64,000 nt of DNA from Escherichia phage vB_EcoM-LTH01. Positions 27,154 to 45,398 of this stretch are shown in pieces (the stretch's first letter is position 1; every line of letters begins with the position of its first letter). Made by a program: the position numbers and the translations under genes. The stretch is taken from the sequence record PP430345; one strand, written 5' to 3'. The notes under the pieces are model-generated. The model was not told the origin of the DNA, made no database searches, and saw nothing but the letters and a program-made list of their open reading frames with translations.

Positions 27154-28851
27154 TTAATAGACATTACCGGTTTGAATAGTTTGTGTAGCTCCGTCAAAAA
27201 TACAAATAGAATATATTGACAATCTCCCACCTGTGTCACTTGAAGAAGATTTATTCATCGTTGCTGTTATCCAAACCCTCCAACAACTTCCGTCGTTATT
27301 GTCTGTAACAACAAGGTGCATTGTATCTGGATACCCTACAGTCGCCGACGCATTTTCAACATAAGCAACAGTATTGCTCAATGTTGCATTACTTACCCTC
27401 CCTGTTTTTATTCTATTAATATCCGTGTAGTTAGCCGTCAAGTACCATCCAAAATTTATTTGTCTGGAAGAAGACGATGTTCCTGCGGAGAAACCTACCT
27501 TAACTTGACTAGCCAAACCTGCGGCGTCAATAATAAGCCTTACATTACCATTATTAGTACCGGGTAAAGGTAACCACATTTTTTTAGTCCCAGTAGGTGT
27601 ATTATAAACCCCAGCTAAGGTAGGAGTAGCAGCTGGACCTACATCTCCTTTATCCCCTTTGTCCCCTTTCTCGCCCTTAGGACCTTGAGGGCCTATCATA
27701 CCTGCCGGACCTTGTGGTCCAATAGCACCTGTCTCCCCCTGAGGGCCAGTCGGACCCCTGATACCCTGAGGGCCAGCTATGCCTTGAGTGCCTTGAGGGC
27801 CTGCTGGGCCGATATCTCCTTTATCTCCCTTAGGACCTTGCGGACCCTCTGGGCCAGTTGGTCCTGCATCACCCTTCACTCCCTGGGGACCTTGTGGACC
27901 TTGAGGACCAGTCGGACCTATATTACCTTGAGGGCCAGTTGGACCCGTTGCACCAATTGGACCTTGAGGACCTTCAGGGCCTGCTGGACCTTCAGCGCCT
28001 ATATCCCCTTTAGGTCCTTGTGGTCCCATAGGACCCTGAGGTCCTTCAGCACCTTGATCACCTTTGGGACCAACAGCGCCTGCAATCCCCTGAATACCCT
28101 GGGGACCCTGAGGGCCTGTTGGCCCTTGTTCCCCCCTTGCACCTTGATCACCTTTTGGACCCTGCGGTCCTTGTGGACCTGTTGGCCCTTGAGATCCTTC
28201 TAAGGCTAAGATAACCCAATCTTCATTTGTACCAGGTTCTGAGCCAATACTGGCAGAACTGGCAAAATACGTTGAACCATTGTAAGAAACCGAATCATTT
28301 TCAGAATAAGATTCCTCAGCGTCCCAAGTACCTTTGAAAGTCAAACCAGCAGGGCCAACCTCACCTTTTTCCCCTTTAGGGCCTGTAAGTCCGATCGGTC
28401 CTTGCGGACCTTCTGCTCCAGTCTCACCCTTAGGACCTTCAGGGCCAACAAGTCCCTGAGGACCTTGCTCACCTTTTTGTCCTTGTGGCCCTTGCGGACC
28501 CATAGGTCCTTGAGGGCCAACAATACCAGCTGCCCCCGCTATACCTGCGGGACCTTGTTCTCCTTTATCACCCTTAGGACCTGTAAGGCCACGGACACCT
28601 TCATCTCCTTTGGGACCAATAGGACCTTGCGGTCCAATATCCCCTTTTGGACCCTGAGGGCCAGCAGGTCCAACTGGACCTTGTTCTCCCTGAGGTCCGC
28701 GAGGACCAGTGTTACCAACATCACCTTGTTCTCCGACACGGGAAAACAAATCTTTAAACAAATACCTCTTTCTTGCATTAAGATCGTAAACGGCAGTCCC
28801 GAAATAAACCCCGCTGTGATCTCCCGTAATACCTTTAGCTGTAGAAGGCAT
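27154..28851 (-). CDS. collagen-like fibre protein (565 aa)
   Basis: Two long G-X-Y tracts ([23 protein letters not shown]..) are split by a CBM5/12-like motif ([37 protein letters not shown]). The non-collagen C-terminal globular domain is ~170 aa. Confidence 0.8.
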
Positions 28852-29547: not shown

Positions 29548-32500
29548 TTAACCTATAGTCATTGCTTGAGTACCCGTCAGGAACTCACCATCCCAGAACA
29601 AGGTCAGGATAGTGCGAGTAGCCCCGAGAGTAGGTGCTGTTCCGTTAGACCAAGCGATCTGGCTATCCCAGTTAATCTGACCACCGTTACCAGTGAATCG
29701 TAAGACTATGGTTTTAGCCCTTCCTGCTGGCAATCCGGTGATGACTAAGGATTTGTTGGTAGTCCCATCTAAAGTCCAAGCGTTACCTGTGCTTGCATCA
29801 ATTGCCCCTGTAGAAGCAACAACACGCAAATCGTACTGGTCCAGCTTAACCCATGCGCCGTTTTCACGAACATAGAACCCACCTTCCAGCGGTGCTTCCA
29901 GAACTGGAACCGTCAATGTAGACCAAGCACCATCTTTACGGACGTACTGGTTACCATCACGAGGTGCTTCCAGAACTTCTGCGGTAGGCAGTTCAGTCCA
30001 ATCACCGTCGGTACGGACATACAGCTTTCCGTCCCCTGGTGCGTCATACACGTTACCACCACCTAAGAATCCGAGCAGTGCCCAGTTCGTTGCGGAAGTT
30101 TTACGGTAATATTCCAGAGTGGAAGAGTTCAGGTACAAATCGTTAAGACGACCATCGCTAACCATCGGTGCACGAGGGAAAACAACCCACAATGTACCTT
30201 GATCACCTTTAGCACCTGTCGGACCAGAAGGGCCTTGCGGACCTTGGTTACCCGTTGGACCAACTGGTCCTACTGGACCTTGGATACGTCCTAAGTTTTC
30301 GTATGCTGCACCAGTCCAACCCCAGAAGTCACCTTGGATAAGATAACCTTGACCCAAAGTACCAGTTGAAGGTAATTCATCAGAGGTATCAAATCGACCA
30401 ATGATCTCTACACCAGGACCAATATCTCCCTGAGGACCTTGCTCACCCTGTGGGCCTTGGTCGCCTTGTGGTCCTACTTCACCACGTTCACCCTGAGGAC
30501 CTTGCTCCCCTTGTGGCCCTGTGGCTCCAGTATCACCTTTGTCACCTTTAGCGCCAGTCAATCCCTGAGGGCCCTGAGTACCCTGAGGACCTTGCTCCCC
30601 TTGTGGGCCACGGGCAACCCCAGCCTCTACAAAAGCAGTTCCGTCGAAAGCGTAACCGATCCCAGTGTCGTCTGTGACATAGAAATCACCTACAGCACCA
30701 GTTTGAGGAAGGTCTGCTTGAGATGGTACAGTTCCTTTAGGGATCAGGCCAGAGCCAACATCCCCCTTGTCGCCTTTGTCTCCTTTTGCACCAGTTTCAC
30801 CAGCAGGTCCTTGTGGTCCTTGGTCACCCGTAGAACCTTTCTCACCTTGTGGACCTTGAGGACCAACTTCTCCTTGAGGGCCGACCTCACCCTGCGGTCC
30901 GCGAACGGTTCCGGCAGAAACGAATTCCACGCCATCCCAAGCGTAACCGATCCCAGTGTCTTCAGCTACGTAGAAGTCACCTAATTCAGCAGTAGAAGGA
31001 AGTTCAGCGGAGGTTGCAACCAAACCTTTCAGCTTCAGTGCATCACCTGCGTCGCCTTTGTCTCCTTTGTCTCCTTTCTCACCAGTGTCGCCTTTGTCGC
31101 CCTTCAGACCCTGAGGTCCACGAGTAAGACCAGTCAGTACCCATGCAGTGCCATCCCAAGCATAACCATTACCTTCAGACTCTACAACGTAGAAGTCACC
31201 AGTGGTGGCATCGGCAGGAAGTGCTTCTTGAGTTGCAACAATACCACGAGCAACGATACCAATTCCAGTATCACCCTTATCACCCTTATCGCCCTTGTCA
31301 CCTTTTTCGCCAGTCTCACCCTGTGGACCAATACCACCTTGTGGACCAGTCTCACCTTGGGGGCCAGCAGGACCTTGTGCCCCTGTTGCACCCTGCGGTC
31401 CTTGTGCACCAGTCAGACCAATAGGACCTTGTGGACCTTGTGGTCCTACATCCCCTTGGGGACCTTTGATGTTACCAACGTTAGTCCACTGACCGCCAGT
31501 AAAGATATAAAGATCAGCTTCAATCAGATAAGCATCACCTTCACTAATACCAGTCTGAGGCAATTGGTCTTCGGAAGCTACTGAGCCAAGGATATTCAGA
31601 CCCGCACCAACAGGACCTTGTTCACCTTGTGGACCAGTTAATCCACGAGGGCCAGTTGCACCCACGTCACCTTTTTCACCCTTCAAGGTTGCAAGGTATT
31701 CATTAACTGAACCTTCGAAACCGTTAGCAACCGCGATAGTGTAGTTGTCGTCTCCTTTATCGCCTTTATCGCCTTTGTCCCCTTTATCGCCTTTATCACC
31801 CTTAGCACCAACTGGGCCTTGTGGGCCTTGGAAAGATCCCAAATCTTCCCAGTTACCAGTACCATCAGAAACGAAGACATTAGTTCCGATCAGGTAAGCA
31901 TCACCCGCATCAGCACCTGCTGGCAAACTTGCTTCATCGGCAACAGAACCTAAGATATTAATAGCGTTAGCATTCTTACCGTCAACACCAGGTTCACCCT
32001 GCGGTCCTTGTTCACCAACATCCCCTTTCTCACCCTTCAGCGATTCAAGAAATTCACGTTGAGAACCAACGTTACCGTTAGCCAGCCAGACCTGATAAGC
32101 AGAACGACCTTCAGGGCCAATCTGGCCTACTGGTTGCCATTTATCGGTATCTCCCGTCCAAACATACATCTTTTCTTGAATGATGTAGGCATCACCAGGT
32201 TTGTTCTCTTCTTGAGGAAGATCTTCGATACGCTGGAAAGAACCAAGGAGTTGCAGACCTATACCGTCAGCACCACGAAGGGTAGCCAACCAGTCATCGA
32301 CTGTTCCAACAAAGCCTGCGGTTTCAGCAACTTCAAATGCAGAAAGACCTTCAGGTCCAGCGAAGTTACCTACGTTTCTCCATTGTTTGATACCACCTTC
32401 AGTGATAACGGTAAAGAAACTCTGTCCGATTACGTATGTATCACCATTCGCAAGATCAACAACAGAAGGCAATTGATCTTCAGATGCCAAGGTGTCGAGG

Positions 32501-33348
32501 ATGTTGATACCAATACCAGCAGGGCCACGAGGACCTTCTACACCACGAGGGCCAGTTGCTCCAGTCAGACCGATAGGTCCAGTTGCGCCAGCAGGACCGA
32601 CTTCTCCAGTATCCCCTTTATCCCCTTTTTCACCCTGCGGGCCAACAGGTCCAGTTTCTCCGGCTGGGCCTTGTGGACCTGCTGGTCCTTGTTCACCCTG
32701 ATCGCCTTTGTCACCTTTGATGGTTTCTACAAACAGACCATCTGAACGTTGTTCCAGTTTGTTACCTGCATCTTGAGAAATGTCAGCACCAACTGGAGCC
32801 ACATACAGTGCACCTTCACGAACTTGCAAGCTGTTGTCGATAGCGGGGGAAACTTTAACTGCCAAACCATCAGGGTCTACAGACAAAGCGTTAGTTGAAG
32901 AGGTGGAAACTTTCAGGGATATACGGGAGTTTTTAGCAACCAGAGGATCTGCGGTAATTTCCAGTGCGTCACCAACAGCGGTAGTGGTAGCATGAACTGG
33001 CTCAACCAGAACACCTTCCAAACTGGCATCACCTTGAGCAGCAGCTTCTTCCGCAGTGACGTATTTTGCAACGTTCGCCTGAGAGGTAGATACTTTAGCA
33101 TCTCCAGCGGAAGCAAACAAGCCTTCCTCGTTATCAGTCTGAACCAGAGTCAGGGCGTTACCTGCACGGCGAGATAGCTTAACTTGAGCTTGCAGAGGGG
33201 AAGAGGTAGTACCATTACCAACTAACAGGGTAGATACAGTATCTTCCGTTTCAATACCGTTAAAAATAACTCCACCACCAGTGGTAGTTACGACAGGATC
33301 AGGAGCAGTAACGAATGCTTCCACGACCTTATCATTATATTCAGCCAT
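29548..33348 (-). CDS. giant collagen-like 'beads-on-a-string' fibre protein (1266 aa)
   Basis: About 10 G-X-Y tracts alternate with 8 copies of a ~48-aa globular module (..I.G.V.S...LP.....GD.Y.......Y.W.G..W...G...GPQG) and with tail-fibre repeats (SAY....G..G....(F/W)L.(S/T)LKG). C-terminus has 3 copies of 'AP.DG..YVR..G.W..L'. Confidence 0.85.
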
Positions 33349-38870: not shown

Positions 38871-40358
38871 TTATCGTCTATACCTGGAATACATCGTAGG
38901 GGCGTGAGGTCGTGGTATTGGAACAGCACGGACAATTTCTGTTTTCTCCAGATAGTTAATACCCGAAGAGATGGCATCCACCCAGTCGTCCTTACGTGAT
39001 CCAGTTGACCTCTCGCCGTCGAAAGATTCAAGTTCCTTCAATAAAGCTTCTAATGTGTCCACAGGGAAAGATTTCTCAACAATCCGTACAAATCCGTTCT
39101 GTGCTAAGTTAGCGAACGGAGAGAAGCGTACAAGCTTCTTTTTGTTACCTGGTGTTGGGTCTTTCTCAACCATGAACCCTTGATTCAATAACTCACGAGA
39201 AGATGTAGTAAATTCGGATAGACCTGCTTGACCAGGGTCAACAGGGAAGATGATCCTAACGTCATCTCCGTCATGTATTGCCTGTTTAAGAATAATCTTG
39301 TCACGCTCACCTGCTTTTTTGCAGAAGCGTCCGGCTTGTCCAGTGGACCAATCGCCAGTATCAACGAATTCATCACAATAATCACCGAACAGGTAGTAGA
39401 ACCCATCCTGATCTCGCGCTACACCTATACCTGCCGTGAAGTCAGGTGTTTTGTTACCTGTGGAACGCTCTGTACCTGCTTTATCGTAAGATCTAACCTT
39501 GTCGCAATTAAGCGGGAGATGATCTACATTTTTGAGGAAAGAACGTTTAAAATAGTTTGCACCCTGCGGACGAGCATCCCAGTTACCATGAAGAAGTCGT
39601 GCACGGTCAACCTCGTTAAGACCTTCCAACTGAGCAAGGTATTCGGGGTTGTTGATAAGCATTGGCGGGTTGTCATAAATAGTGGAAGATATGAATGTGA
39701 ACGATACGGGCTTACATTTCTTACCATAACGTTTCTTCAACTCCTCTACTGAGTCTCCCCACATGTATTGGTCATCCACACGGACGAAATAACGAATAAC
39801 TCCGTCTTTTTCAGGATTAGGATAGCCATCCTTATCGAGATACCAGTCAACCATCTTACGAAGGTAATGATCAGGATCAGGGTTGCAACTTATTACCATA
39901 CGGGAAGGGTATTTTGAGTTTGAACGCAAACGGGACATCATATATTCCAACTGTTCCCATTCGAACTGTGTTCCTTCGTCAACTCCGATAAAGGTAAACT
40001 CCAATCCCTGAATATCGAATTTATCGCTTACGTGTTGCATAGACTGCCATTTAACGGTAGCCCCGTTAGGAAATGTTGCAGTCATTTCATTTTCTTTAAA
40101 CTTAGGCTTAACTACCGGAGGTAGTTGGTTGTAAATATCCTTAGCTTTGTCGAACAAACCACCTTGTCCACGAATCTGAGGGACGGTACGACGGAACATG
40201 ATACATGCTGTTCTGGGGTCGTTTACAATCAACAAAGGCATCAACTGGAGCAGGTAGGACTTACCTGATCCTGCTGCACCACCTATAACCATTATTTGTG
40301 CGTCAGATTCGAGAACCATTTGTTGCTTTCGACTCGCTGGTGCGAATGTAGCAGACAT
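38871..40358 (-). CDS. terL: terminase large subunit (495 aa)
   Basis: Walker A motif VIGGAAGSGKSYLL. Walker B / coupling region FIGVDEGTQF. C-terminal nuclease-type acidic motifs. Confidence 0.9.
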   Translation of the reverse strand: MSATFAPASRKQQMVLESDAQIMVIGGAAGSGKSYLLQLMPLLIVNDPRTACIMFRRTVPQIRGQGGLFDKAKDIYNQLPPVVKPKFKENEMTATFPNGATVKWQSMQHVSDKFDIQGLEFTFIGVDEGTQFEWEQLEYMMSRLRSNSKYPSRMVISCNPDPDHYLRKMVDWYLDKDGYPNPEKDGVIRYFVRVDDQYMWGDSVEELKKRYGKKCKPVSFTFISSTIYDNPPMLINNPEYLAQLEGLNEVDRARLLHGNWDARPQGANYFKRSFLKNVDHLPLNCDKVRSYDKAGTERSTGNKTPDFTAGIGVARDQDGFYYLFGDYCDEFVDTGDWSTGQAGRFCKKAGERDKIILKQAIHDGDDVRIIFPVDPGQAGLSEFTTSSRELLNQGFMVEKDPTPGNKKKLVRFSPFANLAQNGFVRIVEKSFPVDTLEALLKELESFDGERSTGSRKDDWVDAISSGINYLEKTEIVRAVPIPRPHAPTMYSRYRR

Positions 40359-44110: not shown

Positions 44111-44356
44111 TCAATGTAACTCAAGCGATTGAAGAAGTCCAGAAATTTCTTCTTCAAGTTTAGACTCTATTTGAATCTCCTTACATGGAATCATAAACTC
44201 TGGAACCATATCGGCATAAACTCTCTCAGAAACGATTTGAGCGTTCATTGCACTCCAGTCAAGAAAAGACATGACTTCATCTGTTTCTTTCATGAGAGAG
44301 CTTCCTATTGCGTTTAAACGGCATTCTGAAACCTGATTCACGATTACCTCCATCAA
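44111..44356 (-). CDS. hypothetical protein (81 aa)
   Basis: ORF track. Overlaps the upstream stop. Confidence 0.55.
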   Translation of the reverse strand: MMEVIVNQVSECRLNAIGSSLMKETDEVMSFLDWSAMNAQIVSERVYADMVPEFMIPCKEIQIESKLEEEISGLLQSLELH

Positions 44357-44739
44357 TATCCGTACTTCTCTTTAAGTATTGGGTCGTTAACCACAATGTA
44401 ATGACGTGGTTTCGACTTCCCGTTGATTATCACCTTATCTCTGTAAATCCTGATGTAACCGCCAGTCTCCATCTTCTTAAGGAATGCACTTACCTTGGCT
44501 TGACTGGTCGGTGACATTTGAAACAACTCACACAATGCCACCTGTGATTCATAGAAACACGTTTCCACTGATTCGCCCTGTCGAGAAGCAAACTCCGCAA
44601 AGAATGAAAATCTCCACCTCAAAAGTATCATCCTCTTTAAATCCTCGCCGGACATTTCAGTAACCCAACGAAGAGGAAGCATGGCGAACGCATCGTCTTC
44701 AAAAGTCTTCTTCCCAACAGAGGTGTTTATCTCAAACAT
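44353..44739 (-). CDS. winged-helix DNA-binding protein, candidate regulator / origin-binding protein (128 aa)
   Basis: First gene of the leftward operon, with a GAGGAGGG SD. The wHTH-like segment is QVALCELFQMSPTSQAKVSAFLKKMETGGYIRIYRDKV. Confidence 0.5.
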   Translation of the reverse strand: MFEINTSVGKKTFEDDAFAMLPLRWVTEMSGEDLKRMILLRWRFSFFAEFASRQGESVETCFYESQVALCELFQMSPTSQAKVSAFLKKMETGGYIRIYRDKVIINGKSKPRHYIVVNDPILKEKYGY

Positions 44740-44767
44740 AGACCCTCCTCTTAATCTTACCTTCGCT

Positions 44768-44795
44768 ATCTTACATGACTATCCCAACATGTCAA
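44768..44795 (-). promoter_or_regulatory. leftward sigma70-type promoter
   Basis: Minus strand reads TTGACA (44795-44790), 16-nt spacer, TAAGAT (44773-44768). Confidence 0.45.
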
Positions 44796-44879
44796 ACCCT
44801 TTATGCCCGTTTAGGCATACAATACTATATTAGATTTCCCTGGCTCGAAGCCTCTCGCCAAACCCTTTATCATTATAAT

Positions 44880-44929
44880 TTATTCATTTCATTCATAAAT
44901 TATATAATAATTATTCATTTCATTCATAA
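44880..44929. repeat. two 19-nt direct repeats TTATTCATTTCATTCATAA (44880-44898 and 44911-44929), period 31 bp
   Basis: Read directly. Each copy contains an internal TCATT triple. Iteron-like. Confidence 0.8.
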
Positions 44930-44952
44930 TTATTATTAAAAACAATAAAAAC

Positions 44953-45020
44953 AAGATCTTTTATAAGATCTTTTTATATATATGATCTATAGATCTACAG
45001 ATCTTAAAGGATCTTTTATA
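44953..45020. repeat. GATC / AGATCT box cluster with GATCTTTT(T)ATA repeats
   Basis: GATC at 44955, 44967, 44984, 44992, 45000 and 45010. Four are full AGATCT palindromes. Three copies of GATCTTTT(T)ATA. Confidence 0.8.
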
Positions 45021-45052
45021 GATTTTATACTAAATTTTTTAAATTTAAAGTC

Positions 45053-45081
45053 TTGACATGGAGTTTTTACATAGGTATAGT
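45053..45081 (+). promoter_or_regulatory. rightward sigma70-type promoter
   Basis: TTGACA (45053-45058), 17-nt spacer, TATAGT (45076-45081). Confidence 0.65.
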
Positions 45082-45116
45082 GACTCTACTTTAACAAACA
45101 ACAGGTTATCTTTATA

Positions 45117-45398
45117 ATGATTTTGAATAATAAATGTAAAAAGTTATCAGAGAATGAATTAAGTCATCTTCAAGCTATGAGAGAAGCTTGGCATTCAGCA
45201 AAAGCTGGACTGAAAGTATGTGTTGTGACTGTTTACGAATGTGACTGGTACACCATTTTGGGGAACTATTACGGAGTAATGAATCAGTATGTGGAAAAAG
45301 GCTTGATTTATCATCGTGTGGAAGATAGTATGAATCCTGACTTACAGCTTGTGGCTGAAGATTTGGATAATGTACTAATAACTTTGGAGATGATCTAA
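45117..45398 (+). CDS. hypothetical protein (93 aa)
   Basis: First gene of the rightward block, 36 nt downstream of the promoter -10. Confidence 0.6.
   Translation: MILNNKCKKLSENELSHLQAMREAWHSAKAGLKVCVVTVYECDWYTILGNYYGVMNQYVEKGLIYHRVEDSMNPDLQLVAEDLDNVLITLEMI

Follow-up and report, generated by a model that had tools for sequence, protein, structure and literature searches.

What occupies the point from which the two long transcription arms of a large virulent phage diverge? In the 64,000-nucleotide stretch of Escherichia phage vB_EcoM-LTH01 analysed here (sequence record PP430345; hereafter the window), the gene-orientation map contains one convergence point (~6.05 kb) and, as a first-pass annotation had stated, only one strand-divergence point, a gap at positions 44740-45116 bounded by a leftward open reading frame of 128 amino acids and a rightward one of 93 amino acids (Table 1). 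That annotation proposed the gap, together with the adjacent winged-helix gene, as a replication origin or a master control region. The latter is well supported, as this hub and the winged-helix gene are conserved together in at least six lineages, where they head two long transcription arms. On comparative sequence evidence, the gap is a real, conserved and putatively nucleoprotein-forming hub linked to its neighbouring winged-helix gene, and it is plausibly a good candidate for the origin of this phage group. The specific reading favoured here, a replication origin combined with autoregulation of the winged-helix gene, is given a probability of roughly 0.45.

The 3 kb around the hub are 96-97% identical to the corresponding regions of Escherichia phages A7_1, UPEC06, A5-4, A73 and W70, which are unclassified Vequintavirinae with genomes of 137-145 kb; the complete A7_1 genome (144.8 kb) was rebuilt for whole-genome comparisons. 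The divergent gene pair is also syntenic in Certrevirus (CR3, CR8, CR9, phiTE and others) and in SSBI34, with 50-57% identity for the winged-helix protein and 71-74% for the 93-amino-acid protein. The first position at a divergence point extends, for the winged-helix gene alone, to Seunavirus (PVP-SE1), Mydovirus (KB57, Ro1), Henunavirus (Hena1), Kashira and Av-05/TH18, and likewise to metagenomic members that were found only by profile search; in every lineage, the gap beside this gene is long and divergent. The repeat core of the hub (44866-44953) is 86-91% identical to its counterparts in Certrevirus and SSBI34, against 60-67% for the winged-helix coding sequence and 76-78% for that of the 93-amino-acid protein. 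From left to right, the lineages share the winged-helix gene, its promoter, one or two perfect palindromes, AAAACAATAAAACA, AAGATCT(T) boxes, a UP-like tract and the rightward promoter, and a subset of them carries a G+C-rich box and two dyads between the palindromes and AAAACAATAAAACA. In the rV5 genus, neither the winged-helix gene nor the hub was found, and the equivalent gap measures 100 bp.

Within the repeat core, the first-pass annotation had recognised two 19-nucleotide direct repeats (TTATTCATTTCATTCATAA, at 44880 and 44911, period 31 bp) and considered them iteron-like. The repeats are present as described, and the motif is unique: no other copy occurs in the window at up to three mismatches (0.04 expected) or in A7_1 at the same threshold, where the sole extra match needs four, and a degenerate scan of viral contigs returned single chance matches only. 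This uniqueness rules out the 19-nucleotide core as a general promoter or terminator motif. The pseudo-ToxI repeats of phiTE were likewise ruled out as counterparts, since they lie between phiTE_202 and 203, ~7 kb away, and are unrelated in sequence. The repeats do not behave as iterons, as there are only two, their spacing is not conserved, and each proves to be the core of a 31-33-bp unit (U1 and U2) in which perfectly complementary arms of 10-11 bp enclose an asymmetric centre. Perfect arms of 9-11 bp were found in all 18 units examined from nine lineages despite differing arm sequences, including ATAATTATTAT / ATAATAATTAT in the U2 of Certrevirus, ATAACTATTAT / ATAATAGTTAT in L148 and TTATAGTTAT / ATAACTATAA in Kashira, and the compensatory changes in U2 include C-G and G-C pairs (L148, Kashira). 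In a pooled alignment of 15 distinct unit sequences, which combines paralogous units and related sequences, 96.4% of cells were paired versus 73% in shuffles (0 of 500 reached 96.4%), seven of the 11 arm pairs changed on both sides (covariation score 0.517 versus 0.123), and controls with a slid register paired at only 29-68%. The loop, TCnTTnCAnTC, stays constant together with the four inner stem pairs, whereas the outer arms covary. An identical T-to-A change occurs in both dyad centres of A73 and W70. A constant loop within covarying arms is, on this alignment evidence, the signature of a stem-loop or cruciform rather than of a duplex operator.

To the right of the dyads, an A-tract block leads into the box cluster. 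In the block, AAAACAATAAAACA is kept in most lineages, and A/T tracts recur at a spacing of 9-12.5 bp. The cluster had been described as six GATC sites (44955, 44967, 44984, 44992, 45000 and 45010), four of them within AGATCT (44954, 44966, 44991 and 44999), organised as three GATCTTTT(T)ATA units, and all of these elements were recovered. Six GATC sites within 60 bp form the densest cluster of the window (P ~0.011 under random placement); the homologous cluster is the densest of the 145-kb A7_1 genome and its only one with at least five GATC per 100 bp. GATC is over-represented in the window as a whole (386 sites versus 261 expected from shuffles, none of which reached 386). The 8-mers AAGATCTT and TAAGATCT are the most widely shared, occurring in seven of eight clade representatives compared with a shuffle maximum of five, and each lineage carries two to six AAGATCT(T) boxes. 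Because some boxes of Hena1 and Ro1 read AAGACTT or AAGACCT, the conserved element is the AAGATCT(T) box and not the GATC or Dam site as such, and methylation cannot be its whole function. The DNA of the relative CB7 is Dam-methylated (PMC7344957), and an adenine methyltransferase is annotated in A7_1, with weak Pfam support (E=0.046). A 10-bp unit of the cluster, ATGATCTATA (44982-44991), is present in the window and UPEC06 and absent from A7_1, A5-4, A73 and W70, a copy-number difference of one helical turn (10 bp) among 97%-identical phages. Taken over the whole gap, the most constrained parts are the structure-forming A/T dyads and the repeated boxes, not the promoter cores.

The annotation's description of the gap as visibly A/T-rich is also borne out. 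The gap is 73% AT overall, and positions 44867-44966 reach 89%, the maximum of the window (next 76%). The homologous segment is the most AT-rich tract of the A7_1 genome (89% versus 76-78% for the next), and this locus holds the least stable 100-bp duplex of that genome (z=5.3 versus 3.0-3.4 for the next), so that the two dyads sit within its least stable DNA. By sequence, the segment therefore has the predicted properties of the A/T-rich DNA-unwinding element of an iteron-type origin (89% AT, z=5.3).

The other component that could support an origin is the protein. The annotated winged helix-turn-helix protein is confirmed by a confident AlphaFold2 model (predicted local distance difference test score, pLDDT, 90) in which an N-terminal beta-hairpin and a long helix precede a helix-turn-helix, followed by a long beta-hairpin wing and a C-terminal helix. 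In fold comparison, its closest neighbours are initiator winged-helix domains (RepA_N, ORC2/Cdc6), and DnaD domains are also similar; the model resembles in fold the DNA-binding domain of RepA_N / DnaD-type initiators. Foldseek against the PDB gave generic matches, and the neighbours in a viral structure library are mostly longer phage proteins named replication initiator, DUF6945 or HTH_36-type, labels that are names rather than tests; the margins are small. The best sub-threshold winged-helix sequence match is Cdc6_C (E=0.08), and distant relatives of the protein approach HTH_36 and DUF6945. The family was found in no more than 73 phage records, none of them from the rV5/Bas54 genus. Across all clades, there is almost no variation in its recognition helix (S-x-x-S-[QR]-x-K-V-S-x-F-L) or wing tip (KPRHYIxVN), which points to a target motif common to all of them, with the AAGATCT box and ACAATACT as candidates. 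Three distant homologues (P0025, P0027 and P0028; 233-253 amino acids) are extended by an acidic tail of low complexity with DWVPF, DTVPF or DPPF at its end; the window protein lacks this tail. These tails resemble the SSB C-terminal tip, through which replication proteins are recruited; the genomic context of the long-tailed homologues was uninformative. The "replication initiation protein" of RefSeq, rv5_gp075, was considered as a relative and rejected, being very remote at best (hhalign probability 15%), and its name is not a test. It is the third gene of the corresponding rV5 arm (L025:809-1159, equivalent to bas54_0212) and encodes a 116-amino-acid, HTH_36 / DUF6945-like protein, whose Bas54 orthologue tolerates insertions with low read counts ("Intermediate"). 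HIDEN-SEQ essentiality data are not applicable to the winged-helix gene and are silent on it because Bas54 and rV5 lack the protein family.

Beside the -35 box of the winged-helix gene there is, in every lineage, a palindrome, which in the window forms part of a 38-bp element. Its half-sites differ among lineages yet stay symmetric (TGTGCC/GGCACA, TGTCCC/GGGACA, TGACCA/TGGTCA and ATTCCC/GGGAAT) and are usually followed by ACAATACT. PVP-SE1-type phages, L163 and L165 have two tandem copies, and PVP-SE1-type phages an extra palindrome-like sequence between the leftward -10 box and the start codon. The palindrome (-41 to -58 relative to the inferred start site) adjoins the -35 box but does not overlap it, and it is most likely a dimer-binding site at the protein's own promoter. 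Each of the five close relatives has exactly two copies of the 38-bp element in its genome. In A7_1, the second copy (69452-69489; L019:19452-19489; 37 of 38 positions matching) lies between a stop codon and a terminator-like hairpin, and the two copies are inverted and occupy nearly opposite points of the 144.8-kb circular map, 70.6 kb apart; an unlikely possibility is that they mark origin and terminus or serve fork-reorienting recombination. A version of different sequence occurs at two places per genome in Certrevirus, where the second copy was not located by exact pattern and the second BLAST place is probably a partial match. The two 11-nucleotide repeats noted earlier, 66 bp apart, do exist, and their actual length is 12 nucleotides (starting at 44793 and 44859); the copy at 44793 is identical in six close relatives and not conserved beyond them. 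A box similar to the G+C-rich one, GCT(A)CG ... CTCGC, occupies the same position in Certrevirus, SSBI34 and Kashira.

The outward-facing sigma70-type promoters of the first-pass annotation are both present, and their -35 boxes are conserved in distant relatives: the leftward one (TGTCAA on the plus strand) is kept in nearly all lineages, and AAATTTTAAATTTAAAGTaTTGACA of the rightward promoter is conserved across genera. These calls rest on conservation because the promoter scan as a whole did not exceed shuffles (6 found versus 4.5 expected); sequence and conservation together make promoter function at the hub well supported. The predicted rightward promoter, AAATTTAAAGTCTTGACA-N17-TATAGT (45040-45081), with its A/T-rich upstream tract, fits the consensus of the Certrevirus early promoter class, AAAA(N3)TGTTGAC(N19)TATAAT-like with a UP element, which is found upstream of small early genes (PMC7344957). 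The same CB7 paper describes the promoter class only, and not the dyads, boxes, palindrome element or neighbouring protein (PMC7344957). The Certrevirus rightward promoter (L006, L007, L009, L010 and L011, ~1430-1465) has two GATC sites between -35 and -10 (TTGACAnGAGGATCATnGGATCATAGAAT), and the window has none there. A second promoter-like site (45091-45118, TTAACA-N16-TATAAT, 11/12), whose -10 box overlaps the ATG of the 93-amino-acid gene, may be spurious or serve downstream genes.

These promoters carry the principal alternative, that the hub controls transcription only. The early regulator would bind the palindrome, the AAGATCT boxes and the dyads, and would activate, repress or time both early promoters while replication starts elsewhere; SeqA and Dam would possibly act on the GATC boxes upstream of the rightward promoter, and the extreme A/T content would serve promoter strength through UP elements and bending. 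SeqA is known to activate lambda pR via upstream GATC sites, and the hub resembles such Dam/SeqA-responsive promoters (lambda pR, IS10, the dnaA promoter) in having GATC clustered 73-134 bp upstream of a strong early promoter, as Certrevirus also does in having two GATC inside its promoter spacer. It departs from them in that AAGACTT / AAGACCT replaces AAGATCT in some lineages. Both promoters look real and are conserved, the rightward one with its UP element fitting the Certrevirus class (PMC7344957); a gene for a predicted DNA-binding regulator adjoins candidate operators in every lineage, with the palindrome next to the -35 box of the protein's own gene and, in PVP-SE1-type phages, a third similar sequence downstream of the -10 box besides the tandem pair. 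Moreover, rV5-type phages replicate without the hub, and a different non-coding region is insertion-free in Bas54. On the other side, the dyads and boxes are not placed over the promoter cores but 73-215 bp upstream of the inferred start site of either promoter, and for this reason a classical repressor-operator switch, which the first-pass annotation had offered as its second option, fits poorly. Covarying arms around an asymmetric centre are a structural signature and not that of a duplex operator, no other early promoter of the genome has a comparable A/T segment, and the nearest structural neighbours of the protein are initiator domains. We rank transcription-only control a little behind the origin.

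If the hub is a replication origin with autoregulation, the following sequence of events can be envisaged. The winged-helix protein would be produced immediately from the leftward early promoter, and its dimer would bind the palindrome and tune its own promoter, like the Rep proteins of iteron plasmids. It may also occupy the AAGATCT boxes, the TTATTC-containing dyad cores, or both. Negative supercoiling between the diverging promoters, together with protein binding and A-tract bending, would open or extrude the A/T dyads, and the opened dyads would provide an entry point for the T7-type primase-helicase of the phage. Dam methylation of the GATC boxes may couple the state of the hub to replication.

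Comparison with characterised origins yields partial likenesses. Iteron-type origins with a GATC cluster (P1 oriR; also pPS10, F and pSC101) share with the hub an adjoining initiator-like winged-helix gene, a repeated 19-nucleotide motif, an A/T-rich, easily melted segment, a cluster of Dam sites, and an inverted repeat at the protein's own promoter that could serve autoregulation. The hub differs from them in having only two repeats, which are non-conserved in spacing and lie inside covarying dyads, no DnaA boxes, a single 128-amino-acid winged helix in place of two domains, and GATC sites that are not strictly conserved; its host, moreover, is a virulent phage with its own T7-type primase-helicase. 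In relation to RepA_N plasmid initiators (pSK41 / pTZ2162 RepA, PDB 4pta) and DnaD-type phage organisers, the window protein falls outside the sequence families and lacks their C-terminal domain, which recruits host replication proteins. The origins of herpes simplex virus 1 (HSV-1; oriS/oriL) and simian virus 40 (SV40) are alike in an A/T-rich, palindromic, hairpin-capable centre, repeated protein-binding boxes and divergent genes; neither the proteins nor the hosts are related, and the likeness is one of layout only. The primary origin of T7 and oriF/oriG of T4 also combine strong promoters with an adjacent A/T-rich unwinding segment, an arrangement that recurs here in a virulent phage with a T7-type primase-helicase. 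Transcription from the T7 and T4 promoters enters the A/T segment, and its RNA serves as the primer, whereas both recognised promoters of the hub point away from this segment.

The initiator-like fold and the placement of dyads in the least stable DNA thus speak for a replication origin, and a considerable body of observations, including this promoter orientation, counts against it. The fold comparison favours initiator domains over ordinary regulators by only ~1.5 Z units, no Pfam or NCBIfam threshold was reached (RepA_N, DnaD/DnaB_2, HTH_36, DUF6945 and Rep families), and the protein is a single domain, unlike two-winged-helix Rep proteins of the Rep_3 type, without a recruitment domain. An array of three or more phased 17-22-bp iterons is lacking, as there are two copies only, and the unit spacing varies from 31 bp here to 38 bp in Certrevirus and ~46 bp in Kashira. 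The single-stranded fold of the region consists of exactly the U1 and U2 hairpins and is modestly better than shuffles (z=-2.05). The dyads were not found in PVP-SE1-type phages (Seunavirus), Mydovirus, Henunavirus (Hena1), TH18, L163 or L165, and such distant members, L163 and L165 among them, keep the rest of the hub. The hub contains no DnaA box (TTATNCACA) at up to one mismatch, its IHF-like matches are at chance level, and oriC-type 13-mers (GATCTnTTnTTTT) were rejected, since the best have 2-3 mismatches in 11 specified positions and six matches with at most two mismatches occur across the window. GATC is not strictly kept in the cluster, the replication genes lie tens of kilobases away in another arm, and rV5-type phages have the same kind of replisome without the hub.

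The GC-skew check that the first-pass annotation had proposed was uninformative. The cumulative minimum of A7_1 falls at the hub locus, yet skew tracks the coding strand alone. The A7_1 genome is divided into four transcription blocks by two divergence and two convergence points, the other divergence point being a plain 120-bp gap at 64.5 kb, and each of the four sign changes of skew falls where gene orientation switches. In all four blocks, the skew of the coding strand is positive (+0.077, +0.156, +0.106 and +0.171), the two blocks flanking the hub are no more skewed than the other two, and no replication component was found per block. Because every switch follows gene orientation, skew cannot decide the location of the origin and was ruled out as evidence for it. 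In rV5, skew was likewise explained by the coding strand and the origin was not placed (PMC3606486), and the same conclusion was reached for CB7 (PMC7344957).

A competing location also has to be weighed. Transposon mapping in Bas54 recovered no insertions in a 2.5-kb non-coding region (bioRxiv 10.1101/2025.11.20.689424), which lies at a convergence point between bas54_0134 (+) and bas54_0135 (-). Its positional counterpart in A7_1 (89534-90508; L019:39534-40508) is a 1-kb non-coding convergence gap packed with direct repeats, including ACTCTGTGGACAAT... twice in tandem and GTCAACCAAAATGGTTTACAT twice, and poorly conserved even among close relatives. As the location of an essential cis-element, this convergence gap competes seriously with the hub.

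A more specific form of the origin proposal is that the dyads are extruded as cruciforms by promoter supercoiling and that their loops (TCnTTnCAnTC) are read in single-stranded form by the 128-amino-acid protein or by the primase-helicase. We consider this unlikely; if true, the origin would be structure-specific and activated by transcription, a type that has not been described for tailed phages.

Stems that covary around conserved loops are also typical of RNA, and the dyads and palindrome might act as RNA, within a leader or small non-coding transcript that starts at an unrecognised promoter in the hub, for which the 38-bp element offers TATATT as a possible -10 box; the second copy of this element lies in a transcribed 3' region, between the stop codon and the terminator-like hairpin. 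We hold this to be quite improbable: the candidate -10 has no sigma70-like -35 partner, both recognised promoters fire away from the segment, the A/U-only stems are weak, with the folding score only z=-2.05 against shuffles, and a known RNA family was rejected because an Rfam search of the hub returned a single noise-level match.

Still less credible is a packaging or genome-end signal in which the GATC cluster is a methylation-controlled cleavage site, as at the pac site of phage P1. The hub does hold the densest GATC cluster of the genome and heads the arm leading to the terminase gene, and the long contigs of several public assemblies end inside the gap. In three lineages, such contigs (19-81 kb, with L158 only 2 kb) end ~30 nucleotides into the palindrome element, 86-91 bp upstream of the winged-helix gene (L155, L158, L159, L160 and L164). 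Physical genome ends were rejected as the cause, as the breaks are explained by a k=31 assembler at an exact repeat, the element having a second copy. The terminase gene is 4.4 kb away with ~12 genes between, unlike in P1-type pac sites, which lie in or beside the small-terminase gene and give rise to preferred ends. The relatives CB7 and phiTE are circularly permuted like T4, without preferred ends by read depth or BAL-31 (PMC7344957).

An ordinary A/T-rich spacer with repeats as low-complexity by-products is the least tenable account and, on the aligned sequences, is already contradicted by conservation: perfect 10-bp inverted repeats arise easily by chance in A/T-only sequence and the promoter scan is not above shuffles, but the repeat core is more conserved across genera than the neighbouring genes, the arms change in compensation, one 8-mer is shared by 7/8 clades against a shuffle maximum of 5, and stability and AT values are whole-genome outliers. 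Even jointly, packaging site, RNA element and spacer have a small chance of being correct, and a small remainder of the probability is given to none of the accounts.

Table 1. Coordinates of the hub elements and of the genes named in the text (positions in the window)
Feature	Position	Strand	Description
Terminase gene	38871-40358		Leftward arm; 4.4 kb from hub
128-aa winged-helix protein	44353..44739	-	First gene of leftward arm; PHROG 8453, function unknown
Leftward sigma70-type promoter	44768..44795	-	TTGACA-N16-TAAGAT; 10/12 match; inferred start ~44761
12-nt direct repeat, first copy	44793..44804	+	CAAACCCTTTAT; overlaps leftward -35 and start of 38-bp element
38-bp element	44797..44834		Perfect palindrome TATGCC-N6-GGCATA (44802-44819), then CAATACTATATTAGAT; abuts leftward -35
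G+C-rich box	44840..44865		CTGGCTCGAAGCCTCTCGCC, with small GGCT/AGCC inverted repeat
12-nt direct repeat, second copy	44859..44870	+	CAAACCCTTTAT; abuts dyad U1
Dyad U1	44874..44904		Arms TATAATTTAT / ATAAATTATA, centre TCATTTCATTC (44884-44894); holds first 19-mer
Dyad U2	44904..44936		Arms ATAATAATTAT / ATAATTATTAT, centre TCATTTCATTC (44915-44925); holds second 19-mer
A-tract block	44937..44953		TAAAAACAATAAAAACA, two tandem 9-mers; direct-repeat family
AGATCT / GATC box cluster	44954..45021		Six GATC, four AGATCT
UP-like A/T-rich tract and rightward sigma70-type early promoter	45022..45081	+	TTGACA-N17-TATAGT; 11/12 match (45053-45081)
93-aa protein	45117..45398	+	First gene of rightward arm; PHROG 12865, function unknown

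Beyond the hub, the leftward arm proceeds from the 128-amino-acid gene through ~12 small genes to the terminase, portal, capsid, tape-measure and collagen-repeat tail-fibre genes, and the rightward arm from the 93-amino-acid gene through small genes to DNA ligase, NADAR, exonuclease and ThyX. Two large tail-fibre-like proteins with long collagen triple-helix repeats are encoded on the minus strand (27154-28851 and 29548-33348), one of which also has a fibritin C-terminal domain.

Collectively, these results bear on the Vequintavirinae, large virulent phages that are widely considered for therapy and biocontrol and for which no replication origin is known; a published skew analysis found none (PMC3606486). 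The anatomy of the hub is not described in the literature searched. The search for an origin can now concentrate on 200 bp whose anatomy is defined and for which a candidate binding protein has been named, both of them conserved in several genera. The recognition that the apparent iterons are covarying stem-loop dyads alters the mechanism to be considered. Whatever its role, the hub heads both long arms, and it is therefore a key site for studies of early gene expression in these phages and for its engineering.

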